Shown: one piece after another, positions 2,493-30,212 of the stretch
Numbering within the stretch: the first letter of the stretch is position 1
Layout of the letters: each line of letters opens with the position of its first letter
NCBI GenBank assembly: GCA_963722805.1
Contig: CAVROQ010000010.1
Location: forward strand, 38,915-102,914
Source of the DNA: an uncultured Gammaproteobacteria bacterium
GTDB taxonomy: Bacteria; Pseudomonadota; Gammaproteobacteria; Pseudomonadales; JAHEGP01
Direction of reading: 5' to 3'
Length of the DNA stretch: 64,000 bases
Made by a program: the position numbers and the translations under genes
The notes under the pieces: model-generated
The model's input: only the letters and a program-made list of their open reading frames with translations
What the model was told of the DNA's origin: nothing
Database searches by the model: none

Positions 2493-2503
2493 AGGAGTCC
2501 GGA

Positions 2504-14490: not shown

Positions 14491-15516
14491 ATGACTGCTT
14501 ATTTTATTCGCCGACTGTTGTTGGTCATTCCTACTTTTATCGGCATTACCTTACTGGTTTTCGCGATTACCCGCGTCGTTCCCGGCGGCCCGATAGAAAG
14601 AATGATGACGGATGCGATGCTATCCAGCAGCGACGCGGCCAGCGCGCAAACCGACACCCGCAGCGGTAGCACCCTATCCGATGAGCAGCTCGCGGAATTA
14701 CAAGCCTACTACGGGTTCGACCAACCGACACTGCCTGCCTACTTTACCTGGCTGGGCAAGGTGCTTCGACTCGATCTGGGGACTTCCACCCGCTACCAGG
14801 ATCCCGTGTGGGACATCATTGCCGAACGTTTCCCGGTATCCAGCTTTTATGGCATTGCCACCCTCATCATCACCTATGCGGTCTGTATACCTCTCGGTAT
14901 AGCCAAGGCAATACGCCACGGCAGCCGCTTCGATCATATCAGCTCCGGCGTGGTGTTTTTTGGTTATGCGGTACCCAGCTACGTTATCGGCATTGCTCTT
15001 ATCGTGGTATTTGCCTCATGGCTCGACTGGTTTCCCCTCGGTGGCTTCGTCTCTGATGACTTCGAGGATTACTCATGGTGGGGAAAGGTCCGCGATCTGC
15101 TATGGCATGCCGTGCTGCCTCTCGCTGCCTATACGGCAGGTAGTTTTGCGGTAACAACTTTCATGATGAAAAACACATTGATGGATAATCTGTCGGCAGA
15201 TTATGTGCGCACCGCCATTGCCAAAGGTGAGAGCTTTGACGGGGCTGTTCGCAATCATGCGCTGCGCAACAGCCTGATCCCTATCGCCACTTCTTTCGGT
15301 AACAATATCTCACTGCTATTGGGAGGTTCATTCCTGATAGAAACCATTTTTAATATCGACGGTATCGGCCTGCTGGGTTTTGAATCCATCGTAGAGCGAG
15401 ACTACCCGATCGTTATGGGCATACTTGTTATATCTTCGCTGCTTTTCCTTATCGGTAATATTCTATCTGACATCTGCGTTGCACTTGTTGACCCTCGCAT
15501 CAGGTTTGGGGAATAG
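14491..15516 (+). CDS. yejB: Peptide/microcin-C-type ABC importer permease (YejB-like)
   Basis: 341 aa. The N-terminus MTAYFIRRLLLVIPTFIGITLLVFAITRVVPGGP resembles YejB/DppB, and the protein is multi-TM. Confidence 0.85.
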   Translation: MTAYFIRRLLLVIPTFIGITLLVFAITRVVPGGPIERMMTDAMLSSSDAASAQTDTRSGSTLSDEQLAELQAYYGFDQPTLPAYFTWLGKVLRLDLGTSTRYQDPVWDIIAERFPVSSFYGIATLIITYAVCIPLGIAKAIRHGSRFDHISSGVVFFGYAVPSYVIGIALIVVFASWLDWFPLGGFVSDDFEDYSWWGKVRDLLWHAVLPLAAYTAGSFAVTTFMMKNTLMDNLSADYVRTAIAKGESFDGAVRNHALRNSLIPIATSFGNNISLLLGGSFLIETIFNIDGIGLLGFESIVERDYPIVMGILVISSLLFLIGNILSDICVALVDPRIRFGE

Positions 15517-15519
15517 GCT

Positions 15520-16575
15520 GTGAAGTGGTTACGCCTGAATCCGATTACCGTCAAACGCTGGCAACGCTTTCGCGCGATTCGACGCGGCTACTGGTCGGCT
15601 GTAATCCTCGGCGCGCTGATTTTATTCAGCTGCTTCGCCGAACTGTTTATTAATAACCGGGCGCTGTTGGTGATATATGAGGGAGAGTGGTTTTTCCCTA
15701 CCTATGGTGCGATTATGCCTGGCCGGGAGTTTGGTCTGGATTACGACTACGAAACCGACTACAGGGAACTGCAGCAAAGCTTTGCTGAAAAGCCGGACAG
15801 CCGCAACCGGGTGATTATGCCCCTTGTCCCCTACAGTCCGCTGGAAACTGACCTGCGTTACGACGACTTTCCGCCCTATGCTCCCTCAATATCACAACGG
15901 CATTATCTGGGGACCGATACCACCGGCAGGGATATCGTTGCTCGACTGGTTTACGGCTTTCGCATCGCCATCTGGTTTTCTCTCATACTTCTGGCCTGCA
16001 ACTACCTGATCGGCGTTACCCTGGGATGCATGATGGGATTCTGGGGTGGAGCGTTCGACCTGGTTTTTCAGCGACTGATAGAAATCTGGTCGAATATTCC
16101 ATTTCTCTACGTCATTATGATTGTCGCCTCGATTGTACCGCCAGGCTTTTGGACCCTGCTCGGCATCATGATCATCTTCGGATGGACCAGTATGACGTGG
16201 TACATGCGAACGGCCACTTATAAAGAAGGAGCGCGTGATTATGTGATGGCTGCGCGTGCACTGGGAGCGTCCAATTCAAGAATTATCTTTCGCCATATAC
16301 TGCCCAATACCGTTTCAACAATTGTCACATTCGTGCCCTTTTCGGTGGCATCAGGCATCACCGCACTAACTGCACTCGACTACCTGGGATTTGGCCTGCC
16401 GCCCCCGACTCCGAGCTGGGGCGAACTGCTCAAGCAAGGAACCGATAACCTTGAATCGGTGTGGATTGCAGGCGCTGTGGTGCTGGCGATGACCGTGGTA
16501 CTGATGCTGGTAACCTACATTGGCGAAGCCATCCGCGAAGCCTTTGATCCGAGAAAATTCAGCTACTATGAATAA
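15520..16575 (+). CDS. yejE: Peptide ABC importer permease (YejE-like)
   Basis: 351 aa. LNPITVKRWQRFRAIRRGYWSAVILGALILFSCFAELFINNRALLVIYEGEWFFP parallels the E. coli YejE N-terminus. A DppC-type EAA region is present. Confidence 0.85.
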   Translation: MKWLRLNPITVKRWQRFRAIRRGYWSAVILGALILFSCFAELFINNRALLVIYEGEWFFPTYGAIMPGREFGLDYDYETDYRELQQSFAEKPDSRNRVIMPLVPYSPLETDLRYDDFPPYAPSISQRHYLGTDTTGRDIVARLVYGFRIAIWFSLILLACNYLIGVTLGCMMGFWGGAFDLVFQRLIEIWSNIPFLYVIMIVASIVPPGFWTLLGIMIIFGWTSMTWYMRTATYKEGARDYVMAARALGASNSRIIFRHILPNTVSTIVTFVPFSVASGITALTALDYLGFGLPPPTPSWGELLKQGTDNLESVWIAGAVVLAMTVVLMLVTYIGEAIREAFDPRKFSYYE

Positions 16576-18379
16576 TATTCGCCGCTTGCAAAGCCTTATC
16601 GTCGCCCTACTGCTTTCCGTTTGTCTCAACACCCGGGCAGAGCCACACAGTTTGCCCGACAATTTGCAATGGCAAACCAATTCTGAGGACCCCATCTTTG
16701 CATCCCCCGAAGCTATTCGCGGCGGGCGTTTTCGTACCTTTATGCTGAGTTTTCCCCTGACTCTGCGCTTGGTCGGCCCTGATTCCAACGGTGGTTTTGC
16801 GGGCTACATGCGGGCAAACAATTTGTCACTGGTTAGCATTCACCCGGACACCCTGAATCCAATCCCCGAGCTGGCCACCCATTGGGCCTTCGATCCCGAC
16901 GGTAAAACCGTATATTACCGACTTGATCCCGATGCCCGCTGGTCCGATGGAAAACCGGTCACCGCCGATGACTATATCTACACCCTTGTCTTTATGCGCT
17001 CCAAATATATCGTCGCTCCCTGGTACACCAACCACTTCACTAACGTTATTCAAGAGGTGCGGAAATACGACGACCACACCATTGCCATCAAAGGGGCGAC
17101 GGTAAAGCCGAGGGAGGAATTACTTTTCGAGTACGGGATAAGCCCCACACCCGCCCACTTCCATAAGCTCGACGAGAACTGGGTGAAAGACTACAACTGG
17201 AAGATTGAGCCCAATACCGGGCCCTACCAGATATGCCAGATCCGCAAAGGCAAATACATTGAATTCTGTCGCAAGCAAAACTGGTGGGGTAACGAAAGAC
17301 GTTACAACCGCCACCGTTTCAATCCGGACGAGGTAAGAGTAAAGGTCATACGCGATATCAATATCGCTTACCAGCATTTCGTCAAAGGTGAATTGGATAC
17401 CTTCGGCCTGGTAATGCCATCTTTCTGGCATAAAAAGGCCAGGGGCAAAATGTACGACAATGGCTATATTGGCAAGATCGTTTTTTACAACGAAGTGCCA
17501 CAACCCGCCAACGGCATTTATCTGAATGAAGATGACCCGCTCTTCGCTGACCGGGATGTGCGTTACGGATTTGCCCATGCGATGAATATCGACAAGATAT
17601 TGCGCACTGTTTTGCGCGGCGACTATGCCCGCCTGCAAACCATGAATGAGGGCTATGGCGACTACTCCAATCGGACCATTCGCGCCCGCGAGTTCGATCT
17701 CGACAAAGCTGAGCAATACTTCAGCAAAGCTGGCTGGCAGCAACGCGGCCCGGATGGTATACGCCTTAAGCAAGGGGAGCGTTTCTCGGTCCGCGTCACC
17801 TATGTCAACCCTTCGCATACTCCACGATTGGTGGTGCTTAAAGAAGAAGCTCGCAAAGCCGGGATCGAATTGAACCTGCAACTATTGGATGCCTCAGCGG
17901 GCTTTAAGCAGATACTCGAGAAAAAGCATCAGGTCGCATGGATGGGCTGGTCCGGCGGCGGTTTAGCACCGCGCTACTGGCAGTTTTTTCATTCAGATAA
18001 TGCGCATGTGGCCCAAACCAATAACATTACCAACACCGACGACCCACAGATGGACGAGACCATTGCGGCTTATCGCTCAGCCAAAGATAAGCAGTCCAGA
18101 GTTGAGCTCGCGCAACAACTGGAACAACAAGTGTATGACATTGGCTCGGTAATCCCCACGTTTAAGGTGCCGTACACTCGGGAGGCATTCTGGCGCTGGA
18201 TCAAGCTGCCGGATTTTCACGGCACTCGCACGTCGAGTGTTTTATTTTCTCCATTTGGATCTTCCGATGGACTCTTCTGGATCGATCCGGAAGAGAAGCT
18301 GCGGATCCAGCAGGCCCGACGCAATGGCGAAAAGCTGGAACCGATTTTCGTTGAAGATACTCGCTGGCGTCTACCATGA
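16568..18379 (+). CDS. yejA: Family-5 extracellular solute-binding protein (YejA-like)
   Basis: The track ORF starts at 16520. The ATG at 16568 gives the signal peptide MNNIRRLQSLIVALLLSVCLNTRAEP and overlaps the yejE stop. At about 600 aa it has an SBP_bac_5-like length. Confidence 0.85.
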   Translation: MNNIRRLQSLIVALLLSVCLNTRAEPHSLPDNLQWQTNSEDPIFASPEAIRGGRFRTFMLSFPLTLRLVGPDSNGGFAGYMRANNLSLVSIHPDTLNPIPELATHWAFDPDGKTVYYRLDPDARWSDGKPVTADDYIYTLVFMRSKYIVAPWYTNHFTNVIQEVRKYDDHTIAIKGATVKPREELLFEYGISPTPAHFHKLDENWVKDYNWKIEPNTGPYQICQIRKGKYIEFCRKQNWWGNERRYNRHRFNPDEVRVKVIRDINIAYQHFVKGELDTFGLVMPSFWHKKARGKMYDNGYIGKIVFYNEVPQPANGIYLNEDDPLFADRDVRYGFAHAMNIDKILRTVLRGDYARLQTMNEGYGDYSNRTIRAREFDLDKAEQYFSKAGWQQRGPDGIRLKQGERFSVRVTYVNPSHTPRLVVLKEEARKAGIELNLQLLDASAGFKQILEKKHQVAWMGWSGGGLAPRYWQFFHSDNAHVAQTNNITNTDDPQMDETIAAYRSAKDKQSRVELAQQLEQQVYDIGSVIPTFKVPYTREAFWRWIKLPDFHGTRTSSVLFSPFGSSDGLFWIDPEEKLRIQQARRNGEKLEPIFVEDTRWRLP

Positions 18380-19353
18380 GCATTCTAGAGGTTAAGCAAC
18401 TGCAAACAAGTTTCGCCACCGAACAGGGCAGAGTCCAGGTGCTGGACCGCGTCAACTTGCAGGTCAATAGTGGTGAGACTCTGGGTATTGTGGGCGAATC
18501 CGGCTGTGGAAAAAGTATTACCGCATTGTCGATAATGCGTTTGCTGCCCCAACCTTCCGGGCGCATCGACGGCGGCCAGATTCTGTTTCAGGGGCAGGAT
18601 CTTGTGCGAGCGACACCGGAATCGATGCACTCGATTCGCGGTAGGCAAATAGCGATGATCTTCCAGGAGCCCATGACGGCGCTCAATCCAGTGCAAAAGA
18701 TTGGCAAACAGCTGCAGGAGCCCTTCTTGTTGCACTGTCCCGAGATGTCGAGCTATGACCGCATCAAACGAGCCACCGGGTTGCTCGCTGAAGTGGGAAT
18801 CCCCTCGCCGGAAAAACGTCTCAATGAATATCCCCACCAGATGTCTGGCGGCATGCGCCAGCGTGTGATGATAGCCATAGCACTGGCGTTAAAGCCGGCG
18901 TTACTGATTGCAGACGAACCAACCACTGCGCTTGACGTGACGATACAGGCTCAGATCCTGGCATTGATCAAGACACTGCGGGAGCGCCATGGTACTGCCG
19001 TTATGCTGATTACCCATGACCTCGGAGTCATCGCTGAAACCTGTGACCGTATCGTGGTCATGTATGCGGGACGAGTAGCTGAATCTGCTAGTGTGGTGCA
19101 GTTGTTTCGCCAGCCCTCCCACCCTTACAGTGTCGGTTTGCTGGGCTCAATTCCGCGCCTGGATAGCGAATCTCGCACAGTACTGAATACCATTCCCGGT
19201 GTCGTTCCATCTATTGATCAGTTGGGTCATGGTTGCCGCTTCGCTGGTCGCTGTAGTTATGCGCGGGAGCAGTGCCGCGCCGAGCAGCCAGCAATGCAGC
19301 CAGTTGGCGACGATCACCAGGCCGCCTGCTACTTCTGGCAGGAGGTGGTCTAG
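18376..19353 (+). CDS. ABC transporter ATP-binding protein (DppD/YejF N-half-like)
   Basis: 325 aa with Walker A GESGCGKS, signature MSGGMRQRV, Walker [13 protein letters not shown] and the oligopeptide C-terminal Cys cluster. Confidence 0.92.
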
Positions 19354-20331
19354 ATGAGTGAGCCATTGCTGCAAGTCCTGCAGTTGAGCAAACACTTCCC
19401 TATTCGTGGCGGTGTATTTCGCCGGACGGTGGCTGAGGTTCACGCTGTCGATAACGTGTCATTCGATATTTATCCCGGTGAGACTCTCGGTCTGGTGGGC
19501 GAATCCGGCTGTGGTAAGAGCACCATCGGAAAAACCCTGCTGAAGCTACTTGGGCGCTTCGACGGCGAGATCTGGTTTCAGGGGCAACCACTTCACAGCT
19601 TGTCTTCCAGCGCAATCAAAGATCTGCGCAAAGACATCCAGATTGTTTTCCAGGACCCGATGGAGTCCCTCAACCCTCGGCACACGGTAGGCGAGATCAT
19701 CGAGGAACCGCTTATTATCCACCGCCAGGGAGACAGTGCCAGCCGCAGACAAAAGGTTATCCAACTGGCAGAACGTGTAGGCTTGTCGGCCAGTGCCCTC
19801 GACCGGTATCCTCATGAATTTTCTGGTGGCCAACGCCAGCGTATCGGTATTGCCCGAGCCATTGCTCTGGATCCTCGGCTTATTGTCTGCGATGAGCCGG
19901 TTTCTGCTTTGGACGTTTCAATCCAATCACAGATCCTGAACCTGCTGCTAGAATTGCAGAGAGATCTCAACATTGCGCTATTGTTTATTTCCCATGACCT
20001 GGCCGTTGTAAAACACATCTCTCACCGCATTGCGGTGATGTACCTGGGAAATATCGTTGAAATTGCGGATGCCGGAACCTTATATCTGCAACCCCGGCAC
20101 CCTTACACTCGCTCCCTCATTGACGCCATACCCAAGCCCTACCCTGGCTTTGACAAAGAGCGTGAACTTCTGCCGGGTGAGCCGCCCTCTCCCATCCACC
20201 CGCCTGCCGCTTGTCGCTTTCACCCGCGCTGCCCGATGGCACAAGAAAAATGTCGCGAAGTCGCACCGGAAATTGAAAAGGTGGGTGAAAACCATCAAGT
20301 GGCTTGTCACTTTTGGCGAGAAACTCTGTAA
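19354..20331 (+). CDS. ABC transporter ATP-binding protein (DppF/YejF C-half-like)
   Basis: 325 aa with Walker [10 protein letters not shown], signature FSGGQRQRI and Walker B LIVCDEPVSALD. It starts immediately after the previous stop. Confidence 0.92.
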   Translation: MSEPLLQVLQLSKHFPIRGGVFRRTVAEVHAVDNVSFDIYPGETLGLVGESGCGKSTIGKTLLKLLGRFDGEIWFQGQPLHSLSSSAIKDLRKDIQIVFQDPMESLNPRHTVGEIIEEPLIIHRQGDSASRRQKVIQLAERVGLSASALDRYPHEFSGGQRQRIGIARAIALDPRLIVCDEPVSALDVSIQSQILNLLLELQRDLNIALLFISHDLAVVKHISHRIAVMYLGNIVEIADAGTLYLQPRHPYTRSLIDAIPKPYPGFDKERELLPGEPPSPIHPPAACRFHPRCPMAQEKCREVAPEIEKVGENHQVACHFWRETL

Positions 20332-20466
20332 CGGCTATTGGCAAGTGAAACTTACGTGAGGAAACCTGCTCAGGCCACCTCGCGAGACGGCACCGCAATC
20401 CCGAAAAAAAGCTGCGCCCAAATAAAAAAACGTTAGCCGATCGCTGCGGCCCGGGAATCGAATAGT

Positions 20467-23400
20467 CTAGTTGCGCGAAAGGTGCTCGAGTTGATCAGCA
20501 CTGCTTAAGTATAACTCCTCGATCTTTTCAACCGGGATAGGCCTGCTTAGATAGTAGCCCTGAGCAATATCGCAGCCCTGCTTCTTCAAGAAGGCTCGCT
20601 GCAATTCTGTCTCGACTCCCTCGGCGACGACGCTCACATTAAGCACATGCGCAAGATCAATAATGGTTTTAACGATATCGGCATCAACCTGGTTGGTGAC
20701 AATATCAACGACAAAAGAACGATCGATCTTGATGACATCAACAGGGAAGCGCTTGAGATAATTTAGTGAAGAGTAACCTGTGCCGAAGTCGTCTATTGCA
20801 AGACTGAGCCCCATCGCCCTGAGCTTGGCCAGCGTGGCAATAACCTGATCGGGCTCCTCCATAATAGTGCTTTCGGTGATTTCCAACTCAAGGTACTGGG
20901 CCGGCAGGCCGGTTTCCCTGAGTATCAAGGCTATGGTATCGACCAATCCGGGATTGATAATCTGCTTGCCGGACAAATTTACCGAAGCGCACATCATCTT
21001 GAAACCGCGCTTGCGCCAACTCTGCAATTGCTCACAGACTTCCCGCAATACCCATTCACCCAGAGGCAAAATATGTCCTGTCTCTTCAGCAAGGTAGATA
21101 AACTCGTCTGGACCTACCAGACCTCGCTCCGGATGCTCCCATCGTATCAGGGCTTCCATCGCCGTCACCTTGCCCGTCTTGAGGTCTTCCTGAGGCTGGT
21201 AAAAGATCACAAATTCGCCGCGATCGAGGGCACCGCGCAAATCGTTCTCTAGCTGCAGGCGGCGACTCACATCCGCCTCCATTTGACTTTCATAGAACTG
21301 GTAGCGATCGCCCAGCTTCTTGGCTCGGTACATCGCCATGTCGGCACTTTTCAGCAAGGTGCCGATATCCTCCCCATGATCGGGAAACATTGCGATACCG
21401 ATACTGGTGCTGACGTACATTTCCTTGCCCATAAAAACAAACGGACGCGACAGCTGCTGATGGATTTTCTCTGCCACGTTGGCAACTGCTTCGGGCGATT
21501 TAACCCGGTCCAGCAATATCGTAAATTCATCGCCACCGAAGCGGGCGACCATATCTTCCTTACGCAGGCAGCCCTGGACCCGTTCAGAGAAATACTTGAG
21601 TAGCAGGTCTCCGGTTTCGTGGCCGAGGGTATCATTGACCAACTTAAAGCGATCCAGGTCAAGAAACATCAGGGCCAGCATACTGCTTTCGGGCCTCGGT
21701 CGTGCCAGAGCCTCGCCAAAATGCTCGTTGAACATTACCCGGTTCGGCAGCCCGGTAAGGGTATCTTTATAAGCCAACTGATGGACGTGGCGCTCTGCAT
21801 GATGGGCTTGCACCAGGTGTGTAATTCGTTTGCTCAATACCCAGAAATTTACAGGTTTGGCGATATAGTCAGTTGCTCCCGACGCAAATGCCTTGTTGAT
21901 CGAAGCCTCGTCATTGAGCGCGGTAATAATCAGCACGGGTACCTTGCGGGTCTGTGACAAATTTTGCAGCAGCGCACAGGCTGTGAAACCGTCCATTTTC
22001 GGCATGACGGCATCCATCAGCACCAGGTCCGGGGCCTGCTCTTCGCACTGGCTAAGGGCCTGCTCTCCATCTGCCGCCTCTTCAATCCAGTAACCTTCGT
22101 TACGCAATACTTCTGCCATAGCCATGCGGGAGCCGCGATCATCGTCGACGATCAGGATTCTGGGTTGCCCCGAATAACCAGGGTCAAGCTCGGTATTGGC
22201 GACATCCTCGGGGGTGGCTGCTGCTAACCTGGCCGCATCCTCTGAAAAATCTCCCTGCTTCAACCACGCCACCAGCGCATGACTCGCGGCACATACTTCA
22301 CCAACTTTCTTCTCGGCTCCCTCCAATTCGTCCTTGCGGGCCTGCGATTCCAATTGCTGGCTGATTTCAACCAGCCGCACTGCCCCGACGTTGCTTGCAC
22401 TACCCTTTATCGTATGGGCGATAACCGCCAACTTTATAGAGTCGCGCTGCTCCAGAGCCTGCTCCAGCGCTTCGAGATAAAGCGGCAGATCTTCCACGAT
22501 TGCCGCAATGACTTTTTCAACCGCCGGCCCAAGCTGGGCCTCAAGGTTTCGTAGCACCTGAATGTCTATGATCTCGGAAGTGTTCTCGATATCCTGGCCG
22601 CCGACAACAATCTCTTCCGGTTCAAAACCCTCGATATGCTCCCAGTTTTCGTCATCCGTTGGCCCCGATGCATCCAACCAACGTAACAGCTTTTCTTTCA
22701 GGGCATCCCGGCTAAGCGGCTTGGCCAGATAGTCATCCATTCCCACCGAGAGGCAGCGTTCGCTTTCACCCTCAGTGACGTTGGCAGTCATGGCGATGAT
22801 CGGCACATGGCTGTCTTCTGCCTCATACTCCCGGATAATTGCAGTTGCCTTATATCCGTCCAACTCGGGCATATGACAATCCATCAGCACCAGGTCGTAA
22901 CTAGCCCGGGCGATCTGGGCGAGGCATTCCTTGCCATTATTGACCACATCAGCCTGACATCCCATACGCTCGAGCATTGCCAACGCCACCTGCTGATTGG
23001 CACGATCATCCTCTACCACCAATAGCCGGCTGCCGCGAAACATAATGGCCGAGGGTTCGAGGAGTTTGCGTTGGGTAGATGCGGCATCGCCGGTTTTTTG
23101 AATTTCATTGATACAGCTCACAAGGTGATTACGCAACACCGGCTTGGTTAACACCGCGCTGGCATAATTTGCGCAAGTTGAGTCAGCAACAGACCCATAC
23201 CGCTGGATAAATATGACGCCCGCCTGCCGTAGCACCGGAACACCGCGCATATAACGCAACAGTTCAAAGCCGCGGCCACCATCGAGCATTTCGTCAAGGA
23301 GTACAAGCGTAAACGGCTGCTGTGAAGAGGCCTCGACCAGCTTTTCCTGTGCCTCATCAAAACTTGAGGCAACATCCCACTGGACACTGTTGCCATCGAG

Positions 23401-24966
23401 CATACAGCCAAGACTGCGCTGCATCAGAGGGTTGTTATCGATAATAAGCATGCGACCATGAGTGGACTTGATGCGGAGCAGCTTTGACGGGGTAGCCTCG
23501 CCACCTTGTTGCAACAGCGGCAGGGTAAACCAAAACCGGCTGCCCTCACCAGAGTCGCTGTCAACACCCATATCACCGCCCATCAACTGCACCAGTTGGC
23601 GAGAGATAGTCAACCCAAGTCCAGTGCCGCCAAACTTGCGTGTGGTAGATTCATCGCCCTGGGAGAATACTTCAAAGATCCGCTCTTGCTGCTCTTCGCT
23701 GATACCTATTCCAGTATCCCAGACTTCAAAGCGCAAATCGATGCTGTCAGTATTCATATTGATCACAGAGGCTTCAATGCCCACCGAGCCATGCTCGGTA
23801 AACTTGATAGCATTACCCGCGAGGTTTACCAACACCTGACGTATTCTATCGCTGTCTCCAATCAGGTATTCAGGAATTTCGGCTGCCGCAACATAAGCGA
23901 AATCAATATTCTTACGCTGGGCCTGTGGCCCCAGTAACACAACAATTTGCTCGAGGCATTCGTTCAGGTCGAACTCACGCAGCGATAACTGCGCTTTGCC
24001 TGCTTCATTTTTGGAGAAGTCCAGCAGATCATCAATCAGGCAGAGGAGAGACTCCGCCGAGCTTCGGGCTACTCCCACAAATTCCTTCTGCTTTTCACCA
24101 AGGCGCATGTCACTGAGCAGATCAAGCATGCCGAGCACGCCGTTCATAGGGGTTCGCAGCTCATGGCTCACATTGGCAGCGAACTCTCCCTTGGCTTTAG
24201 CAGATTCCAGAGCCTGGTCCCGTGCTAACCGCAGCGCCTCTTCCCTGCCGTCCAGCACGTCCATCATGGTATTGAAAGCGCTCTCCATATCGCGAATATC
24301 GCTGGTACCTCGCAGCTCTGCCCTGACCGCGTTCTCACCTTGCTCCGCCTTGCGCATGGTGCGGGCCAGATTCTGCAGGGGCCGGGTTAACCTTCCGGTA
24401 ATGGTGAGCAATGCGAGTAACAAAAAGGAGGCCAGAGCTATTGAGACCAGCAAGTTGTAACGAAAAATACTGCTCTCCATATTGTTGAGTGTTGCCTTGC
24501 TCATCATCACCCTGACATGACCAATCAGTTCCGGGCCATCGGCAACATTGGCAAATGGCGAATCTGCCCCACTGCCGCTATAAACCGGGGAATCGAAGTG
24601 CCAGGCTTCGGGAGTTTCCTGAAACAAAGCCAGTTCCGTGGAATGGGCACCACGAGAATAACCATCGGGGAGATCGCTAAACAATATGCGCTCTCTGACA
24701 TCAGTTATTTCAACAGCCTCGATATCGGGGAAGGCTTTGATAACAACAGCGGCCTCCGTCGCGCTATCTTCACTGCTATAAAGGAGGGCCAGGGTGCTTT
24801 GCTCGGCAAAGCTTTCTGTCAACTTGAGTCCTTCACCGATTAGCCGCTCGCGCAGCTTTTGGCTGGTCAGCTCAGAGATGACTATGCTCGAAATCAAGGC
24901 CAGCAAAAGCATACCAAGACTGAAGATAATGCCTAGCTGGTTTCTGAAGCTGATATTCTTAAGCAT
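20467..24966 (-). CDS. Multidomain hybrid sensor: TM-periplasmic domain-TM-HAMP-HisKA-HATPase-(atypical REC)-REC-Hpt-REC-GGDEF-EAL
   Basis: Domains read from N- to C-terminus:
- H-box FAANVSHELRTPMNGV;
- ATPase GNAIKFT...DTGIGIS...GGTGLGLTISRQLV;
- atypical REC RMLIIDNNP...LVLLDEML;
- REC LLVVEDDRANQ...LVLMDCHMPELDG...LAKPL;
- Hpt AHTIKGSASNVGA;
- REC ILIVDDDRGS...LVLMDAVMPKMDG...IAKPV;
- GGDEF with I-site RKEDMVARFGGDEF;
- EAL with EALIRW, ELEITES, DDFGTGYSSL, KIDRSF and EGVET. Confidence 0.95.
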   Translation of the reverse strand: MLKNISFRNQLGIIFSLGMLLLALISSIVISELTSQKLRERLIGEGLKLTESFAEQSTLALLYSSEDSATEAAVVIKAFPDIEAVEITDVRERILFSDLPDGYSRGAHSTELALFQETPEAWHFDSPVYSGSGADSPFANVADGPELIGHVRVMMSKATLNNMESSIFRYNLLVSIALASFLLLALLTITGRLTRPLQNLARTMRKAEQGENAVRAELRGTSDIRDMESAFNTMMDVLDGREEALRLARDQALESAKAKGEFAANVSHELRTPMNGVLGMLDLLSDMRLGEKQKEFVGVARSSAESLLCLIDDLLDFSKNEAGKAQLSLREFDLNECLEQIVVLLGPQAQRKNIDFAYVAAAEIPEYLIGDSDRIRQVLVNLAGNAIKFTEHGSVGIEASVINMNTDSIDLRFEVWDTGIGISEEQQERIFEVFSQGDESTTRKFGGTGLGLTISRQLVQLMGGDMGVDSDSGEGSRFWFTLPLLQQGGEATPSKLLRIKSTHGRMLIIDNNPLMQRSLGCMLDGNSVQWDVASSFDEAQEKLVEASSQQPFTLVLLDEMLDGGRGFELLRYMRGVPVLRQAGVIFIQRYGSVADSTCANYASAVLTKPVLRNHLVSCINEIQKTGDAASTQRKLLEPSAIMFRGSRLLVVEDDRANQQVALAMLERMGCQADVVNNGKECLAQIARASYDLVLMDCHMPELDGYKATAIIREYEAEDSHVPIIAMTANVTEGESERCLSVGMDDYLAKPLSRDALKEKLLRWLDASGPTDDENWEHIEGFEPEEIVVGGQDIENTSEIIDIQVLRNLEAQLGPAVEKVIAAIVEDLPLYLEALEQALEQRDSIKLAVIAHTIKGSASNVGAVRLVEISQQLESQARKDELEGAEKKVGEVCAASHALVAWLKQGDFSEDAARLAAATPEDVANTELDPGYSGQPRILIVDDDRGSRMAMAEVLRNEGYWIEEAADGEQALSQCEEQAPDLVLMDAVMPKMDGFTACALLQNLSQTRKVPVLIITALNDEASINKAFASGATDYIAKPVNFWVLSKRITHLVQAHHAERHVHQLAYKDTLTGLPNRVMFNEHFGEALARPRPESSMLALMFLDLDRFKLVNDTLGHETGDLLLKYFSERVQGCLRKEDMVARFGGDEFTILLDRVKSPEAVANVAEKIHQQLSRPFVFMGKEMYVSTSIGIAMFPDHGEDIGTLLKSADMAMYRAKKLGDRYQFYESQMEADVSRRLQLENDLRGALDRGEFVIFYQPQEDLKTGKVTAMEALIRWEHPERGLVGPDEFIYLAEETGHILPLGEWVLREVCEQLQSWRKRGFKMMCASVNLSGKQIINPGLVDTIALILRETGLPAQYLELEITESTIMEEPDQVIATLAKLRAMGLSLAIDDFGTGYSSLNYLKRFPVDVIKIDRSFVVDIVTNQVDADIVKTIIDLAHVLNVSVVAEGVETELQRAFLKKQGCDIAQGYYLSRPIPVEKIEELYLSSADQLEHLSRN

Positions 24967-24993
24967 CAATTAATCTAACCTTTGGCCTCTGGC

Positions 24994-25965
24994 CTATTGT
25001 CTCGGAAAAACAACGTCTATTTCTCGAATTCTGGCGCGCGAAATATTCAAGCCCAAGTGCTCCGCAGTCCGAATATTCACCGCTCTCAGCAAGTCCCGTG
25101 CGTGTTCAATTCCGATATTATTGCCGTCTCGCTTGGCCACAAGCGCCTTGGCTATCGAATTGCCAAGGCCCTGATTGTCTGGATAGAGTGAGAATAGAAC
25201 ACCCTTTGAAACATAGGAAGGGTTACTGGAAAATACCAATAACTTGCGGTTCCATGCCCCCTTTAAGACATGGTACAAAACTGACCGTTCGCGCAGTGCA
25301 ATATCTCCCTGCAATAGCCAGACACTATCTTGTCCCGGGGCCAGGGTTTTAAACAAAGCCCGGTACCGGCTTGCGGATTCGGACAGTGATTCAATCAAAT
25401 AGGCTTCCAGTTGAAGACCATGCGCTGCGGCAACGGCTTTGGCTCGCTGCATCAAGCGCCCATGAAGCTTTTGCTGGTAAATGACGTGAACGGTTTTGAT
25501 TTCTGGCGCCAGAGCAACAAGCTCACGAAACATTTCGTCGGGGTCAGGTGCCAGGGTTATGGCGGTAAAGTCCGGCTCAACTGTCACCGGAGCCGCTAAT
25601 ATCGCGCTGCTGATGGTCAAGTAACTGGGCGGCAGTTGTTGCACAAAGTCCATAGCCTGGTTGCCCAACGCGACCACGGTTTTCAATTGGGTGCTGTCCA
25701 TGATAGCGACGACATCATCCAGGCTGGCATTACGCGCAAGCACCCGATCTTTCACCTCCCCCGGGTAACCCGCTCGAATGCCCTCGATAATATCAGTAAA
25801 TACGCGGACATAGGGGTCTGGCACATCGGGATATAGCACTACGATATCATCGGCAACATCGCCCTGTGCGAACACCGGAATTGCAAGCAAAAGCAGCTGA
25901 ATACCGCAAACCAGCACCGTGGCGGTTTTGAAGCGCAACCATTGGCCCCAGAGCACAGACTTCAA
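24994..25965 (-). CDS. Periplasmic type-I binding protein, ABC_sub_bind (PF04392)-like, with no cognate permease or ATPase nearby
   Basis: 323 aa with signal peptide TATVLVCGIQLLLLAIPVFAQG. An alternating beta-alpha PBP pattern is visible. The C-terminus RAVNIRTAEHLGLNISRARIREIDVVF resembles the typical end of the PF04392 family. The gene ends 24 nt upstream of the hybrid kinase gene. Confidence 0.55.
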   Translation of the reverse strand: MKSVLWGQWLRFKTATVLVCGIQLLLLAIPVFAQGDVADDIVVLYPDVPDPYVRVFTDIIEGIRAGYPGEVKDRVLARNASLDDVVAIMDSTQLKTVVALGNQAMDFVQQLPPSYLTISSAILAAPVTVEPDFTAITLAPDPDEMFRELVALAPEIKTVHVIYQQKLHGRLMQRAKAVAAAHGLQLEAYLIESLSESASRYRALFKTLAPGQDSVWLLQGDIALRERSVLYHVLKGAWNRKLLVFSSNPSYVSKGVLFSLYPDNQGLGNSIAKALVAKRDGNNIGIEHARDLLRAVNIRTAEHLGLNISRARIREIDVVFPRQ

Positions 25966-26019
25966 CGTAGCGCCTTACCAAGGTTACAGCCGCACAACGG
26001 CTTGCTTGACATCGTCCGA

Positions 26020-26841
26020 TCAGTCATGGGTCACCGGGCGCTCCTTGACACCGGTATATTTAATATCGTCACAGCTCAAAGGCAAAAACGATCCTGGCGG
26101 ATTTTTATGATTCTCCTCATAGCAGGCGTGGATTCCACCATTTACACAAAGACTGAATACAATGTAGCCTTGATACTGATCAAGGCCTTGATCAAGCCAA
26201 AAAGCACTCAGGTAACCCGCCAGGTTTAACGATTCACCGTATTTTTTACCGAGATACTCCTGAATACGGTAAGCGGCAGTCAGGTGGGCCCCGTCTGCAA
26301 ACCCCAGATTTCCGGCGACTCTTTGCATTGCGGCGACTCTTTCATCGCCGGCCGCTATCGGGCGCAAATACCCAGGAACCATAATCTTGCCTTTGCGTTT
26401 CGCATGACCTTCAATAAAATCTGCGGCCGATTGCCCGGCGAGCAACGACTTCCTGGCTTGGGCAATAAAACTAAGGGTATCCATTACAGTGCCTGGCCCA
26501 TACACCCTGGAATCGCTGGCCATGATACCGGCGCATATTGCAGCTGAGGGTAATACCCGCGCATCACCTCCTAACGCCCCGATCTGGTTACACCAGATTC
26601 TGGGGTCAGGCCAGCTCAAACATATAAATGCGCTCTCCATCCAATCAGATAGCCGTTTTTCCGGCATTTTACCGGTTACATTCAATAGCAACACCTGGAA
26701 GAAGCTCGCCTTCCCAACCAGGTCATCCATCATTGAGTAGCCCTGATTGGAAACGCCTTGCCCAAGCACCCAACCGCCTTTCCGGGAATAAATCTGGCCG
26801 CGGCGTTTATGCCAATAATCCTGGGGAGCGACGTCAGTCAT
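26020..26841 (-). CDS. Citrate synthase-fold protein B (citryl-CoA lyase-like, canonical catalytic His positions substituted)
   Basis: Likely start is the ATG at 26841 (MTDVAPQDYW; the track ORF extends to 26910). Family-like segments are SMMDDLVGKASFFQVLLLNVTGKMPEKRL, WPDPRIW, MVPGYLRPIAAGDERV and NLAGYLSAFWLDQG. GYLR replaces GFGHR, and GPGTVM replaces GPLHGGA. No signal peptide is present. Confidence 0.55.
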   Translation of the reverse strand: MTDVAPQDYWHKRRGQIYSRKGGWVLGQGVSNQGYSMMDDLVGKASFFQVLLLNVTGKMPEKRLSDWMESAFICLSWPDPRIWCNQIGALGGDARVLPSAAICAGIMASDSRVYGPGTVMDTLSFIAQARKSLLAGQSAADFIEGHAKRKGKIMVPGYLRPIAAGDERVAAMQRVAGNLGFADGAHLTAAYRIQEYLGKKYGESLNLAGYLSAFWLDQGLDQYQGYIVFSLCVNGGIHACYEENHKNPPGSFLPLSCDDIKYTGVKERPVTHD

Positions 26842-27685
26842 CCGATCCACTCCACTGATAGTGATAATGGCTATCGCTAACAAAGGGCATGTCCGTGATC
26901 GGTTTACCACTCATTTCAATACCATGCGCCAGCAAGCCGGGGCTGGATGCCAGTTGAAACAGGCCTGCACCAACATTTGGCGAAAACCCCAGCTCGGTAA
27001 AGATGGCGGCAGCAATGCCAGGCATTTGCCACCCAAGATTCGAACTGCGCATACCACTCACAAACGCCACACCCCAGGCCAACGCTTCGTTGTCTGGAAA
27101 GGATTGATGTAATCGCACTGCCGCGGCATCTGCGAAGGTATCGACACCTGCAAAGCAGCTGCCGAAGCCAGGTGCCACGCAAATGGGTTCTCCCTCAGCA
27201 CGCGGCTTATCCTGCAGCTCCTGGCTCAGCTCTACAGCCAGGACCAGGGGATCTTTACGGATGTTTTTACGCAGAAACTTAATCGCATTGCGTACTTGTG
27301 CAGCGCCAAGATGCTCACCGCCAAGCAACGCAAGCCCGATCGGCAAAAGATGCAGCGGATCGGCCCTGGACACGCTGGCATTCATCACGGCACGAGTACC
27401 CGCGTGGCGCGGGCCGGGATTTGCTAGCAAGATCAGTATTTGTTGCAATTGAGACGCTTGCCCGGCACTGGGAAGTTCACCTTTCAATAAGCAAAAAATA
27501 ACCTCAACCAGGCTTCTGCGCTCCATTAGGTCGAGCACATCGTAGCCATGCCATAACACCCGCTGCGCCACAAAGGGGTTTTCCGGGTCAGGAATTTCCT
27601 GGCAGACCTTGGTACTCACCTTGTCGGAAAACACATCGCCACGAGCTTTTACAAGCGCTTCTTCAGGCGAGTTCAGTTTTGTCAT
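26834..27685 (-). CDS. Citrate synthase-fold protein A (citryl-CoA lyase-like, GFGH His replaced)
   Basis: 283 aa. Family-like segments are RVLWHGYDVLDLMERRSLVEVIFCLLKGELPSAGQ, LANPGPRHAGTRAVMNASVSRADPLHLLPIGLALLGGEHLGAA and APGFGSCFAG. Canonical enzymes read PGFGHRVY at that last position. The start overlaps the receptor stop (TAATG), and the stop overlaps the start of protein B (ATGACTGA). Confidence 0.55.
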   Translation of the reverse strand: MTKLNSPEEALVKARGDVFSDKVSTKVCQEIPDPENPFVAQRVLWHGYDVLDLMERRSLVEVIFCLLKGELPSAGQASQLQQILILLANPGPRHAGTRAVMNASVSRADPLHLLPIGLALLGGEHLGAAQVRNAIKFLRKNIRKDPLVLAVELSQELQDKPRAEGEPICVAPGFGSCFAGVDTFADAAAVRLHQSFPDNEALAWGVAFVSGMRSSNLGWQMPGIAAAIFTELGFSPNVGAGLFQLASSPGLLAHGIEMSGKPITDMPFVSDSHYHYQWSGSDD

Positions 27686-29901
27686 TAGAATTGATACCTG
27701 ATTTTGCCGTAAATAGCCCTGCCGGCCAGCGGGAAGTCACCGGGTACCAGAGATCCTCCGGGGATAGCCGCCTCACCCGGGCTCGGCTCGTAAGCCTCGA
27801 CATCGAATACGTTGTTCACTATCAGCGAAATATCCATATGATTGATGATATTGGTACGGCGCAGCACCAGCGACGTGAGCGTGTAATCACCTATCGGATC
27901 GCGCGGGTCTCCAGCTTCACGCTTGCGATCGGCGACCCATTTTGCCTGGCCATTCAGCTCCCAGTCATATGCGAAATTCCACCGCAGATCGGCGAACAGC
28001 TGGTGTTGTGGCGCGTTAGGAACATCTTTATCAGAATCATCGAAATAGGATTTCTGCCAGGCGTAATGTGTCTTCAGGGAAAGGCTTGATGTCATACGCC
28101 ATTCAGCTTCGATTTCGAAGCCGTAACCCGTCTGTCCGCCCGTATTTTTTGCCCGCCGGGCACCCGATTCCACAAGGTCCCCATTGCCATCTAGTTCTTC
28201 CGCTTCAACCGGTACAAACTGAATCAGGTCATCAATCTCGTAATAATAAACATTGAGTCCGGTGCTCAAGTCGAAGGTAGGACGGTAGTCGAAAGCCACC
28301 TCCAGGGTATTGATCGTTTCCGGATCAAGGTCGGGATTCCCAAGGCCTACGGGATTGTTTTCAACAAACAGCTCGGCAAACGATGGCGCCCTGAAGGCCC
28401 GCCCATAGAGAAATTTGGTGGTGAGATCCTGGCGGGTATTCCAAACCAGCGCGACCCGGGGGTTAACCGTTGAGCCAAAATCCGAGTAGTGATCATAACG
28501 AACGCCGAGGGTAAGGTTCCAATCTGAGGCCAGGGCCCATTCGTCCTGCAGCGAAGCGTAATAAACCGTGCGACTCTCGTCGGGGATAAAGTTGTATTCC
28601 GTCCCGGTCACAGAGGTCAATGCCCCATCAATAACCTGATAAACCTCCACCGGATTTAATGCCAGACCACCATAATTCTTGGTCTCTTCGCCATGCAGCC
28701 TGGCGTAGATCAGGCCGCCAGCGAGACGAATAGTGTGACGATCAAAACCCGTGTAAAAGGCTGAGGTATCCAGGCGCTGGTGCTCTTCATACACTTCAGG
28801 ATTACCCAGCATACCGTCAGTAAAAAGCCCAAAGCCGGCGATAGAGTCCGGAATAAAAGCGCCATCCTCGTCAAATTGAATCGCTGCGATGTTACCGTCT
28901 GCACCCAATGGCAGTAGCGCACCCGCCGGGAATAAATCCTGCTCGGACTTGGTGTTGATATCCATATAACTCAGCTTGGCTTCATACTCCCAATACTTGA
29001 CGCTATCCCGGTTGACGTAAGCCAGGTCGACAAGATAATTATTCGCCTCAGATGTACCCCCCGGGTCTAATGCCAACGCCAGGCCGGGTCCCACACCCGC
29101 CTGCTGTCGCCAATTCCAGGCTGAGAATTTCCAGTGCTGCCAGCTGATCGCAGCCCGAATATCCGCTCGTTTTTCATCCGTCGCCGCTTGAGACGGCGCC
29201 AGAGAGGCTGTCGTCTGCAGAAAATTGTCAATCGTGGTCTGTGCATCTGCATCGATTATGCGGCCACTATCCCCATCGGTTTTGAGAAAATTCGCTGAAA
29301 ACATCAGCTCGACCTCTCCCAGCTGGCTGCCGTTGAGCAGCCACAGCTCCTGGGTATTAAATGAGCCGGCCCGCACACCGAGTTGAGTACCATCAATCTG
29401 CTTGCTGGTTTTAGTAATGACATTGATGACACCGGCAAAAGCGTCGGCACCGTATATGGCTGAACCCGGGCCCCGAATCACCTCAACCCTTGCAATATTA
29501 CTGACAGGAAGTGTGTTTTTCGCGCCACGATCGCCAAAATAGAGTTGGGTAATAGGCGTTCCATCCACCAGCATCAGCACCTGGGGATTTTTGTCCGTAT
29601 GAATACCTCGCATCGAATAAATCGGCGAGAAGCGGTAGGAGGAAAGCGCGACATGCAATCCCGGCACGGTTTCCAACACCTGGTCCAGGTTTGCTGCACC
29701 CATTGCCTCGATTTCACTGGCAGTAATCACCGTAGCAACGGCCGGCGCCTCGGATATGGCCAATTGCTGGCCGGTGGCGATACTGACGAAATCCTCATCA
29801 CCGAAGGACAGCAACAGGTCTTCGTCAGCGGCGTGGCTGGCGGCGGCAAGCGGCACCAGCAATGCTAACCAATGGCGATGATAACGAACTAAATTAGTCA
29901 T
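27685..29901 (-). CDS. TonB-dependent outer-membrane receptor
   Basis: The ATG at 29901 gives signal peptide MTNLVRYHRHWLALLVPLAAASHA (the track ORF extends to 29943). The plug domain is present (ISEAPAVATVITASEIEAMGAANLDQVLETVPGLHV...VEVIRGPGSAIYGADAFAGVINVITK). A long beta-barrel follows and ends in the terminal aromatic motif GKIRYQF. Confidence 0.92.
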   Translation of the reverse strand: MTNLVRYHRHWLALLVPLAAASHAADEDLLLSFGDEDFVSIATGQQLAISEAPAVATVITASEIEAMGAANLDQVLETVPGLHVALSSYRFSPIYSMRGIHTDKNPQVLMLVDGTPITQLYFGDRGAKNTLPVSNIARVEVIRGPGSAIYGADAFAGVINVITKTSKQIDGTQLGVRAGSFNTQELWLLNGSQLGEVELMFSANFLKTDGDSGRIIDADAQTTIDNFLQTTASLAPSQAATDEKRADIRAAISWQHWKFSAWNWRQQAGVGPGLALALDPGGTSEANNYLVDLAYVNRDSVKYWEYEAKLSYMDINTKSEQDLFPAGALLPLGADGNIAAIQFDEDGAFIPDSIAGFGLFTDGMLGNPEVYEEHQRLDTSAFYTGFDRHTIRLAGGLIYARLHGEETKNYGGLALNPVEVYQVIDGALTSVTGTEYNFIPDESRTVYYASLQDEWALASDWNLTLGVRYDHYSDFGSTVNPRVALVWNTRQDLTTKFLYGRAFRAPSFAELFVENNPVGLGNPDLDPETINTLEVAFDYRPTFDLSTGLNVYYYEIDDLIQFVPVEAEELDGNGDLVESGARRAKNTGGQTGYGFEIEAEWRMTSSLSLKTHYAWQKSYFDDSDKDVPNAPQHQLFADLRWNFAYDWELNGQAKWVADRKREAGDPRDPIGDYTLTSLVLRRTNIINHMDISLIVNNVFDVEAYEPSPGEAAIPGGSLVPGDFPLAGRAIYGKIRYQF

Positions 29902-30212
29902 AAAACGCGGCCTGAAGACAGATGAACTTTTGAAATGCGGCACGCTCCCGGTGCTCTGCTTCTGCCCGGTGTTGGTTTATTAATTATTGGCAGCAACTGC
30001 TTTGAACGACTAGCTGGCATCTCTCTCAACGCTTATGCAAGGCTTTATTTGACGATAACTCCAGACTTTACTAAAGACTTGAAAGCTTAAGAGAAAGCCT
30101 AGGTTAGGCCAGGGAATCATGCCACCATATATCGCTTTAATTCTAATTGTCAGGTCGGTAACAATTGGGGGCGTTTCAGCCGCTGGAAGACGCACCCTGA
30201 CTGATATTCAAA

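Follow-up and report, generated by a model that had tools for sequence, protein, structure and literature searches.

How does a single protein that carries a full set of phosphorelay sites choose between making and destroying a second messenger, and what signal does it obey? The question is raised by a gene in a 64,000-nucleotide (nt) stretch of DNA from an uncultured gammaproteobacterium (contig CAVROQ010000010.1, positions 38,915 to 102,914; the whole stretch is referred to as the window). The gene product joins a membrane-bound histidine kinase and further phosphorelay domains to one GGDEF domain and one EAL domain, the two domain types of cyclic di-GMP (c-di-GMP) synthesis and breakdown. 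Our reading, to which we assign a probability of roughly 0.65, is that the protein is a ligand-gated, BarA/GacS-like kinase with its own response regulator fused to it: a dimeric, self-contained converter of a periplasmic signal into a balance of diguanylate cyclase (DGC) and phosphodiesterase (PDE) activities, set through its last receiver domain. The family to which it belongs is widespread among the gammaproteobacteria and uncharacterised, and the protein is a neat variation on familiar signalling parts and not a novel type of system.

One reading frame for sensor, relay and output

The gene occupies 20467..24966 on the minus strand and encodes 1,499 amino acids (aa) counted from its ATG, from which the residues are numbered here. 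The open reading frame (ORF) can be extended by one codon to a TTG at 24969, the ATG at 24966 being the next codon; a Shine-Dalgarno-like AAAGG lies a few bases upstream of the start and the stop codon is at 20467-20469. An earlier note on this sequence had described a single ORF of about 1500 aa at 20467..24969 and had left its strand unstated; the ORF is borne out on the minus strand, and a plus-strand reading of the same interval is ruled out by its many stop codons. From the N terminus the protein consists of a transmembrane (TM) segment, a periplasmic sensor, a second TM segment, HAMP, HisKA and HATPase domains, two receivers (REC-A and REC-B), a histidine phosphotransfer domain (Hpt), a third receiver (REC-C), and the GGDEF and EAL domains. 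Pfam found all of the parts that had been listed from the translation alone, namely HisKA/HATPase, three receivers, Hpt, GGDEF and EAL, in the one ORF.

The protein-cluster search described below returned a protein from the public databases that is 100% identical to the window copy (P0001). This identity, orthologues of about 1,500 aa in many genomes and the intact state of the window copy rule out an artefact or a pseudogene. With E-values as low as 1e-77, and with orthologues in many genomes matching it in length, chance and assembly artefact are both excluded.

The membrane part was delimited by hydropathy. TM1 (aa 11-33; 24868-24936) and TM2 (aa 170-192; 24391-24459) enclose a periplasmic stretch of about 135 aa (aa 34-168; 24463..24867) which is homologous to the sCache_4 domain (PF09984, BarA/GacS-type) of relatives. 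This part of the window copy has no Pfam match of its own; sCache_4 was matched in the family members P0018 (31.5 bits) and P0038 (25.7 bits), and a hidden Markov model (HMM) built from the family's periplasmic segment picks up the same domain in orthologous loci. HAMP follows at aa 189-238 (24253..24402; 31.2 bits against a Pfam cut-off of 25).

A complete set of phosphorelay sites

HisKA (aa 258-323; 23998..24195; 72 bits) carries the first phosphorelay histidine, His268, in the H-box SHELRTP, and HATPase_c (aa 370-484; 23515..23859; 104 bits) has N385, the G1 box DTGIG at 417-421 and the G2 box GGTGLG at 446-451. REC-B (aa 649-760; 22687..23022; 95 bits) is canonical, with E652-D653, T727 and K749 around Asp696; by analogy with the second receiver (REC2) of Anabaena CdgK, we infer that it supplies the first aspartate of the relay. 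The Hpt domain (aa 821-894; 22285..22506; 52.1 bits, E 8e-14, cut-off 24.6) offers His851 in the motif HTIKGS (aa 851-856) as the second histidine. REC-C (aa 937-1048; 21823..22158; 104 bits) is also canonical, with D941-D943, T1015 and K1037, and Asp985 is its presumed acceptor and the second aspartate.

Conservation of these sites was read from an alignment of 118 full-length homologues that are 43-100% identical. All 118 sequences have His268, both the N box and the G1 box and, within the G2 box, G447, G449 and G451; G446 is found in 107. The same is true of D653, D696, T727 and K749 in REC-B (E652, 114/118), of H851 in the Hpt domain, and of D942, D985 and K1037 in REC-C (T1015, 117/118). 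The four-step order of histidine and aspartate sites that the earlier note had proposed is therefore found as H268, D696, H851 and D985, each invariant. The note had also named what would count against it, a failure of domain searches to confirm the Hpt domain or the third receiver, or the absence of key catalytic residues on alignment; both domains pass the Pfam curated cut-offs and no catalytic residue is missing among the 118 sequences.

An H-box, N, G1 and G2 boxes, a fused canonical receiver and an Hpt domain with HxxKG are the features of a hybrid, or unorthodox, histidine kinase, and all of them are present. The kinase half is BarA/GacS-like in sequence: its best NCBIfam model is BarA (E 4e-149, residues 245-879). 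It is not a BarA/GacS orthologue as defined by the equivalog NF008318, against which it scores 498.4 bits where the cut-off is 890. In BarA, GacS, TorS and ArcB, as here, a TM segment, a periplasmic domain, a second TM segment, HAMP, HisKA, HATPase, a receiver and Hpt follow each other in one chain. The window protein differs from these kinases in having the extra receiver REC-A between HATPase and the canonical receiver, in having its response regulator fused to it, and in an output that is enzymatic rather than DNA-binding.

The closest experimental parallel is CdgK of Anabaena sp. PCC 7120, which has the same HisKA-HATPase-REC1-REC2-Hpt order, a dispensable first receiver, and a receiver-coupled c-di-GMP enzyme as its target (PMC9927289). 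In that system phosphate was shown to travel from H1149 to D1604 of REC2, then to H1757, and finally to D60 of the enzyme CdgS (PMC9927289). CdgK and CdgS are separate proteins, however; CdgS is a REC-GGDEF protein without an EAL domain, and CdgK senses through CHASE, PAS and GAF domains in place of an sCache_4 domain partnered by a binding protein. By analogy with CdgK/CdgS, and with the split gene pairs described below, phosphate in the window protein would be expected to pass in sequence from H268 to D696, H851 and D985.

A recurrent fusion of two partner genes

A search of 5.8 billion protein clusters showed that the protein has a large family. Among the best 120 clusters, 118 have members of at least 1,440 aa with 43-100% identity and the same Pfam domain set, and in nearly all of them the match spans 97-100% of the query. 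Among the organisms named as sources are Nitrosococcus halophilus, N. oceani, N. watsonii, Candidatus Nitrosoglobus, Methylomagnum ishizawai, Sedimenticola, Spongiibacteraceae and Pseudomonadales; the nearest species-level genomes are those of uncultured Gammaproteobacteria and metagenome-assembled genomes (MAGs) of Cellvibrionales, at 86-89% identity. Annotations of family members are generic ('EAL domain-containing protein', 'diguanylate cyclase', 'diguanylate cyclase (GGDEF)-like protein') or absent, and no NCBIfam equivalog reached its cut-off for the window protein, which has no curated family name.

We also scanned the 80 best-matching genome loci with HMMs made for each domain from the family alignment. 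The fused core was found in 40 of them, and the loci fall into three groups. In the first, the full architecture with the same periplasmic domain is encoded by an uninterrupted ORF in 16 loci (L001-L004, L006-L014, L016, L061); to this group also belong the N-terminally truncated L015 and the frameshifted L005. The latter, an 86%-identical orthologue in a Cellvibrionales MAG (5184-9691), is read in two overlapping frames with the break between REC-B and Hpt, which is probably a sequencing frameshift or the mark of a pseudogene. The second group comprises 24 loci in which the fused HK-REC-REC-Hpt-REC-GGDEF-EAL core (HK, histidine kinase) stands behind a different sensor; it includes Methylococcales, tubeworm endosymbionts and Desulfobulbaceae, and in one member (L031) the end of the contig cuts the gene after GGDEF. 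Of the sensors tested in this group, two were CHASE8 and one was a weak, sub-threshold sCache_4, and two loci have PAS-like cytoplasmic N termini.

In the third group the system is split, or only the kinase is seen. Many of these loci have HK-REC-REC-Hpt alone, and in eight of them (L046, L054, L058, L060, L065, L075, L076 and L080) a separate REC-GGDEF-EAL gene directly follows the HK-REC-REC-Hpt gene. The output modules are homologous between fused and split forms, and their clusters follow the groups. This Rosetta-stone pattern, in which the same two parts are fused in some genomes and encoded by adjacent genes in others, identifies the kinase/relay half and the REC-GGDEF-EAL half as cognate partners; the window protein is the one-gene form of a system that would otherwise be an ordinary pair of genes.

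An Hpt domain in cis is already a feature of unorthodox kinases such as BarA, ArcB and TorS. The earlier note had presented the location of the whole relay and its output in one chain as unusual, and of this claim the fusion itself stands and its rarity does not, for the arrangement recurs, and is publicly catalogued, in at least 118 protein clusters and half of the best loci surveyed. Proteins that combine an EAL domain with HisKA, HATPase, Hpt and HAMP domains have also been recorded in Caulobacterales and Rhizobiales, in a comparative-genomics study (PMC9756655). Our full-text literature searches, whose coverage did not extend to subscription-only papers, found no characterised fused member of the family, only split systems and censuses.

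The output module and the direction of the switch

The GGDEF domain (aa 1065-1219; 21310..21774; 166 bits) and the EAL domain (aa 1241-1476; 20539..21246; 260 bits) have the residues that active enzymes of both types have. An intact GGDEF motif with an inhibitory I-site upstream had been reported, and this is exact: RKED at 1135-1138 is followed after precisely five residues by the A-site GGDEF at 1144-1148. The metal and substrate residues of the domain are D1103, D1105, N1111 and D1120. The hallmark EAL motifs listed in the earlier note were likewise all located (EALIR at 1271, ELEITES at 1360, DDFGTG at 1392, KIDRSF at 1413, EGVET at 1449), and the catalytic set comprises E1271, N1330, E1362, E1365, D1392-D1393, K1413, E1449, E1452 and Q1469.

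Both sets are strongly conserved in the 118 homologues. G1144, D1146, E1147, F1148, D1103, N1111 and D1120 are found in every one (G1145, 116/118; D1105, 112/118), the I-site arginine R1135 in 117 and its aspartate D1138 in 118. In the EAL domain E1271, N1330, E1362, E1365, D1392, D1393, K1413, E1449 and E1452 are invariant, Q1469 is kept in 117, and all of the EAL motif residues checked are present in at least 111. An active DGC and an active EAL phosphodiesterase are accordingly what the residues predict. Because the residues of the whole H-D-H-D chain and of both catalytic domains are invariant or nearly so across a deep family, the chain and the two domains are under purifying selection, and such selection is the best available sequence-level evidence for a working relay and a truly bifunctional enzyme.

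The spacing of the domains suggests how the relay might be coupled to the enzymes. K1037 of REC-C is 31 aa away from the DxLT motif (D1068) that opens GGDEF in 118/118 homologues, and 127 aa separate GGDEF from the EAL glutamate, again in 118/118; the distances between REC-A and REC-B, between REC-B and Hpt and between Hpt and REC-C all vary across the same sequences. An AlphaFold2 model of residues 930-1499, made with 63 family sequences (mean predicted local distance difference test score, pLDDT, 87.8), has a single 26-residue helix (aa 1041-1066; 21769..21846; helix 112-137 of the modelled segment) that runs continuously from alpha5 of REC-C into DxLT and joins the receiver to GGDEF. The spacings and the model together suggest that REC-C is coupled rigidly to the catalytic tandem and that the tethers within the relay are flexible.

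Foldseek placed MorA (4RNH; 48% identity, E 3e-50) and PA0575 (5M3C; 46%) first among structures in the PDB, with RbdA and DosP next; the TM-score against 5M3C_A is 0.81 (normalised to the target), and the EAL domain alone gives TM-scores of 0.93-0.96 against the EAL structures of MorA, MucR and BifA. Among solved structures, the MorA and PA0575 GGDEF-EAL tandems of P. aeruginosa, at 45-48% identity, come nearest to the output half. What drives these two proteins is PAS and other sensor domains, and not a receiver that ends an internal phosphorelay. By sequence, the REC-GGDEF part matches PleD, WspR and DgcR, REC-GGDEF enzymes that are activated for synthesis. None of the named PDE equivalogs that we considered (DibA, PRK10060, DosP, GepA, HmsP, PvrR) applies, since all score below their NCBIfam cut-offs (DibA, 477 bits where 980 are required; DosP, 367 where 857 are required).

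Receiver-controlled bifunctional enzymes provide precedents of another kind. RavR of Xanthomonas and Lpl0329/Lpg0277 of Legionella are REC-GGDEF-EAL proteins that shift toward degradation when phosphorylated, and the DGC activity of Lpl0329 is lost on phosphorylation (bioRxiv 10.1101/604611); the REC-GGDEF enzyme CdgS is activated for synthesis (PMC9927289). RavR and Lpl0329 resemble the window protein in architecture, in that a bifunctional GGDEF-EAL tandem is placed under a receiver, but they are free-standing and are phosphorylated by separate kinases.

Such proteins bring into view a different account of the output half, in which the protein is a net PDE only, the GGDEF domain is a module that binds GTP or c-di-GMP and acts allosterically on EAL, and REC-C merely turns the PDE up or down. 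RavR goes toward PDE activity on activation and Lpl0329 is without DGC activity once phosphorylated; RbdA (PA0861) and DosP are among the structural neighbours; and the high-scoring NCBIfam matches of the output half are the PDE models DibA (E 1e-142), PRK10060 and DosP, albeit all below cut-off. We take this account seriously and still consider it unlikely. The GGDEF residues checked are present in 112-118 of the 118 homologues and the I-site arginine and aspartate in 117 and 118; the simplest explanation for a product-inhibition site is that synthesis takes place and has to be limited; and the nearest solved relative is the MorA tandem (48%), whose PDB entry, 4RNH, is titled 'tandem diguanylate cyclase - phosphodiesterase'.

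An upstream cluster and a candidate binding-protein partner

The nature of the signal may be sought among the genes upstream of the kinase gene, which share its strand. The nearest (24994..25965, minus strand) encodes a 323-aa periplasmic protein, similar to solute-binding proteins, of the PF04392 (ABC_sub_bind) family (26.8 bits). The N terminus of the product is signal-peptide-like (...AIPVFA/QG), and the product matches the PF04392 structure 3LKV (E 9e-6); the gene ends, with its stop codon, 24 nt ahead of the kinase ATG. Beyond it are a pair of cytoplasmic citryl-CoA-lyase/citrate-synthase-like proteins of about 280 aa each (26834..27685 and 26020..26910), related to PDB 6HXP and matched by NCBIfam citryl-CoA lyase models at E 1e-12 to 1e-16, below cut-off; a TonB-dependent outer-membrane receptor of 752 aa with plug and barrel domains (27685..29943); and, at the head of the cluster, a 660-aa thiamine diphosphate (ThDP)-dependent enzyme of the acetolactate-synthase/ScyA-like superfamily (30213..32195), assigned from database matches and, by synteny, co-conserved.

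The association is conserved. In tblastn searches the PF04392 gene was the next gene upstream of the kinase gene in 20 of the 21 orthologous loci that have upstream DNA, the exception being L002, and the TonB-dependent receptor gene upstream of the binding-protein gene wherever the orthologous contig reaches far enough. The ThDP and citryl-CoA-lyase-like genes occur in most orthologous loci, and two cultured organisms, Nitrosococcus halophilus Nc4 (CP001798.1, about 1.412-1.436 Mb) and Methylomagnum ishizawai, share this gene set, with a binding protein for which a PF04392 match is recorded.

The binding-protein gene is absent from the second group, a sister clade in which other sensor domains are present. 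Most loci of that group instead have a YfiR/HmsC-like (DUF4154) gene directly upstream of the kinase gene; such a gene occupies this place in 20 loci (L030 and 19 within L021-L080), most of them in that group and the rest among split or kinase-only relatives. In L030 (7144-14890) this gene stands between a TonB-dependent receptor gene and the gene for a CHASE8-sensor kinase, and most of the second-group loci with a YfiR/HmsC-like gene have a TonB-dependent-receptor match upstream. The arrangement parallels that of PF04392 in the window. Because sensor domain and periplasmic accessory protein broadly go together in type, a direct partnership between the two is supported.

An adjacent, co-inherited PF04392 gene and a periplasmic sensor domain are what a binding-protein-gated sensor should show at the level of genes. 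The accessory-protein gene lies upstream of the gene for a membrane sensor in charge of a phosphorelay or a GGDEF-EAL enzyme, as here, in LuxP-LuxQ, TorT-TorS, ScrB-ScrC and NspS-MbaA, and in YfiR-YfiN, the parallel for the sister clade; by analogy with these pairs, the binding protein would dock on the sensor domain in a ligand-dependent manner. To our knowledge, neither the PF04392 family nor linked TonB-dependent receptor and enzyme genes are part of the LuxPQ, TorTS, ScrBC, NspS-MbaA or YfiR-YfiN systems. Periplasmic binding proteins are able to stimulate kinases as well as DGCs and PDEs, and the ligands in the PF04392 structures that have been surveyed are Trp, Tyr and Phe (PMC10443332). 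We found no literature that combines a TonB-dependent receptor, a solute binding protein, a hybrid kinase and c-di-GMP, subscription-only papers being outside the coverage of the search.

The cluster also suggests a more ambitious scheme, in which the six genes form one circuit that makes and senses its own small molecule, a quorum or metabolite switch of the ScrABC kind. The ThDP enzyme, as an acyloin-synthase-like protein, and the citryl-CoA-lyase-like enzymes would build a secreted metabolite in the cytoplasm, the TonB-dependent receptor would return it to the periplasm, the binding protein would report it to the kinase, and the internal four-step relay would flip the enzyme between c-di-GMP synthesis and breakdown. 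Were this so, a self-signal switch would be common to marine Cellvibrionales, ammonia oxidisers (Nitrosococcus) and methanotrophs. We regard the scheme as doubtful.

Several further observations concern the cluster itself. It is kept in genomes that range from those of Cellvibrionales to those of Nitrosococcus and Methylomagnum (window, 24994..32195, minus strand; L081, 2349-14500; L082, 3334-14545), with some rearrangement: the TonB-dependent receptor gene is ahead of the lyase-like pair in the window and behind it in the other genomes, and the Nitrosococcus cluster has an additional short-chain dehydrogenase/reductase (SDR) gene. The full-length orthologue in L002 (9167-14515; 61% identity) is without all five of the upstream genes and adjoins a gene for a Sir2-family deacetylase; the same gene flanks the cluster in the window (33045..33773). 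Since all five genes are missing from L002 and the kinase gene there abuts the flanking Sir2 gene, the cluster has seemingly been gained or lost as a block. The two lyase-like ORFs overlap by 77 nt as listed, and the true start of the second therefore probably lies downstream of the GTG at 26910; the ATG of the first of them (27685) overlaps the stop codon of the TonB-dependent receptor gene, which suggests translational coupling. The best solved relatives of the ThDP enzyme are BbmA (8X3X, E 2e-81) and CsmA (8X3Z); it has an N-terminal extension of some 60 residues relative to acetolactate synthases, and the NCBIfam model 'ScyA-related TPP-binding enzyme' remained below its cut-off. Literature searches on BbmA and CsmA returned nothing relevant, and their chemistry is not used as evidence here.

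Where else the phosphate might go

The relay could be branched, with the Hpt domain also serving free-standing response regulators in trans and the REC-C-GGDEF-EAL part being one output among others or a phosphate sink. GacS and BarA, which the kinase half resembles, phosphorylate GacA and UvrY in trans; an orthologue in Marinagarivorans (L017) has the same sensor and stops after Hpt in a locus that continues downstream; L019 likewise shows only the part from the periplasmic domain to Hpt, although its contig ends there; and for many HK-REC-REC-Hpt relatives no REC-GGDEF-EAL gene was detected within the available locus DNA. We nonetheless give branching little credence for the window protein. 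No response-regulator gene adjoins the kinase gene in the window, and the persistence of the fusion, without change in length, across at least 118 clusters favours REC-C as the principal acceptor.

The other candidate for a role in phosphate flow is REC-A (aa 507-619; 23110..23448; 36.8 bits, cut-off 30.2), with D510-N511, D558, I587-Q588 and K608. The motifs that the earlier note had quoted from it were found at 508 (IIDNN), 556 (LLDEML) and 606 (LTKPV). When the acceptor aspartate and the conserved threonine and lysine are checked in each receiver, as the note had advised, REC-B and REC-C are complete and REC-A retains the aspartate and lysine without Thr/Ser: Asp558 and Lys608 are kept, N511 takes the place of the second acidic residue, and Gln588 aligns with Thr83 of PhoB. 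With D510-N511 and Gln588 in these positions, the Mg2+-binding pocket and the switch Thr/Ser are compromised. REC-A is also the least conserved folded domain of the protein (mean column entropy 2.45; REC-B and REC-C have about 1.2). No more than 4 of its 114 positions are conserved at 90% or more, D558, K608 and P609 among them; D558 is kept in 113 of 118 family members and K608 in 116.

In two related groups REC-A is canonical, the acidic pair DD, the acceptor D, the S and the K each being present in nearly all of 64 sequences, and since the same domain is canonical in related clades, REC-A appears to be a true receiver that is decaying in the lineage of the window protein. The proposal that it is a pseudo-receiver holds in so far as its acidic pair and Thr/Ser are incomplete, and fails in so far as it has a genuine receiver fold, retains D558 and K608, and is canonical in relatives. 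In CdgK, deletion of REC1 or its D1462A substitution had no phenotype, and REC2 and Hpt were essential (PMC9927289). By this analogy REC-A is most likely an auxiliary structural or regulatory spacer, at best a weak phosphate sink, that stands outside the main relay.

A pseudo-receiver with a more active part is known from ShkA of Caulobacter, in which the order HK-pseudoREC-REC is the same and Rec1 keeps its acceptor aspartate, lacks the acidic pair and binds c-di-GMP (PMC6969517); REC-A, which is likewise without part of the acidic pocket and Thr/Ser, might by this token be an input domain that binds c-di-GMP or another small molecule, frees REC-B and provides product feedback. That is very improbable, because ShkA is absent from the PDB matches to REC-A at E <= 1, REC-A has no conserved surface patch on alpha4-beta5-alpha5 and few conserved positions at all, the REC-A/REC-B linker, the most variable segment of the protein, has no DDR-type motif, and the REC-A of sister clades is a normal receiver of canonical type. 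ShkA differs further in having no N-terminal sensor, Hpt or output domain; we detected no sequence similarity between REC-A and ShkA Rec1 and recognised no c-di-GMP-binding residues in REC-A.

A proposed mechanism and the points against it

Our preferred reading, the self-contained converter of a periplasmic signal, can be set out as a series of steps. A small molecule would enter through the outer membrane by way of the co-encoded TonB-dependent receptor and would be bound by the co-encoded PF04392 protein in the periplasm, which would then dock on the sCache_4-type domain. HAMP would toggle the HisKA/HATPase core between a kinase and a phosphatase state. In the kinase state, phosphate would be handed along the relay to D985 of REC-C over variable tethers, within the dimer, and with the kinase switched off it could flow back out of the relay. 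The state of REC-C, phosphorylated or not, would be transmitted through the rigid helix of invariant length to the MorA-like GGDEF-EAL tandem, where it would shift the balance between cyclase and phosphodiesterase, and the conserved RxxD I-site would cap the synthesis of c-di-GMP.

Several points weigh against this reading. Phosphotransfer, ligand binding, the docking of the binding protein and both enzyme activities are all predictions. The precedents for the direction of the switch conflict, RavR and Lpl0329 pointing to degradation and the REC-GGDEF enzymes to synthesis. An intact GGDEF motif is no guarantee of cyclase activity either, for GGDEF domains of the RbdA type are mainly GTP-dependent activators of EAL. 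The PF04392 assignment of the binding protein barely exceeds its cut-off of 25.9 bits, and because L002 lacks the upstream cluster, the partner genes are not obligatory or can be encoded elsewhere. Finally, REC-A, in keeping Asp558 and Lys608, could still be phosphorylated and may matter more than we propose.

If the mechanism is right, the protein would be a natural single-chain model for multistep phosphorelays, with four phosphorylation sites and a measurable c-di-GMP output in one polypeptide, and the natural split versions would offer a comparison with the fused form. It could help to show how the phosphorylation of a receiver sets the balance in an enzyme with both GGDEF and EAL activities, and what a further receiver, itself in decay, adds. 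The conserved link between the TonB-dependent receptor, the PF04392 protein and the enzymes points to an orphan periplasmic cue, one that would govern the decision between biofilm and motility in gammaproteobacteria of environmental importance, among them Nitrosococcus, methanotrophs and marine Cellvibrionales. All of the components are well-known domains, and CdgK/CdgS, the nearest of the split systems, has already been dissected; since no individual part is new, the value of the family is that of a tractable system with an orphan signal and not of a new principle.

Surroundings of the gene

Promoter- and terminator-like sites around the kinase gene are not above the counts in shuffled sequence. 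A short GC-rich hairpin followed by a run of T lies 16 nt past the kinase stop codon (20435..20451, minus strand) and faces a convergent operon for an oligopeptide ABC transporter (14491..20331). Elsewhere in the window, a 559-aa ORF at 6570..8249 has no Pfam match. The remainder looks like ordinary chromosome, with genes for GspE and GspD of type II secretion, MetH, a sulfite/nitrite reductase, an electron-transfer flavoprotein (ETF)-ubiquinone oxidoreductase, a PpiD-like chaperone and Lon protease, which lie among the intervals 143..4435, 38316..42104, 42891..44678, 49236..50915 and 52921..57776.

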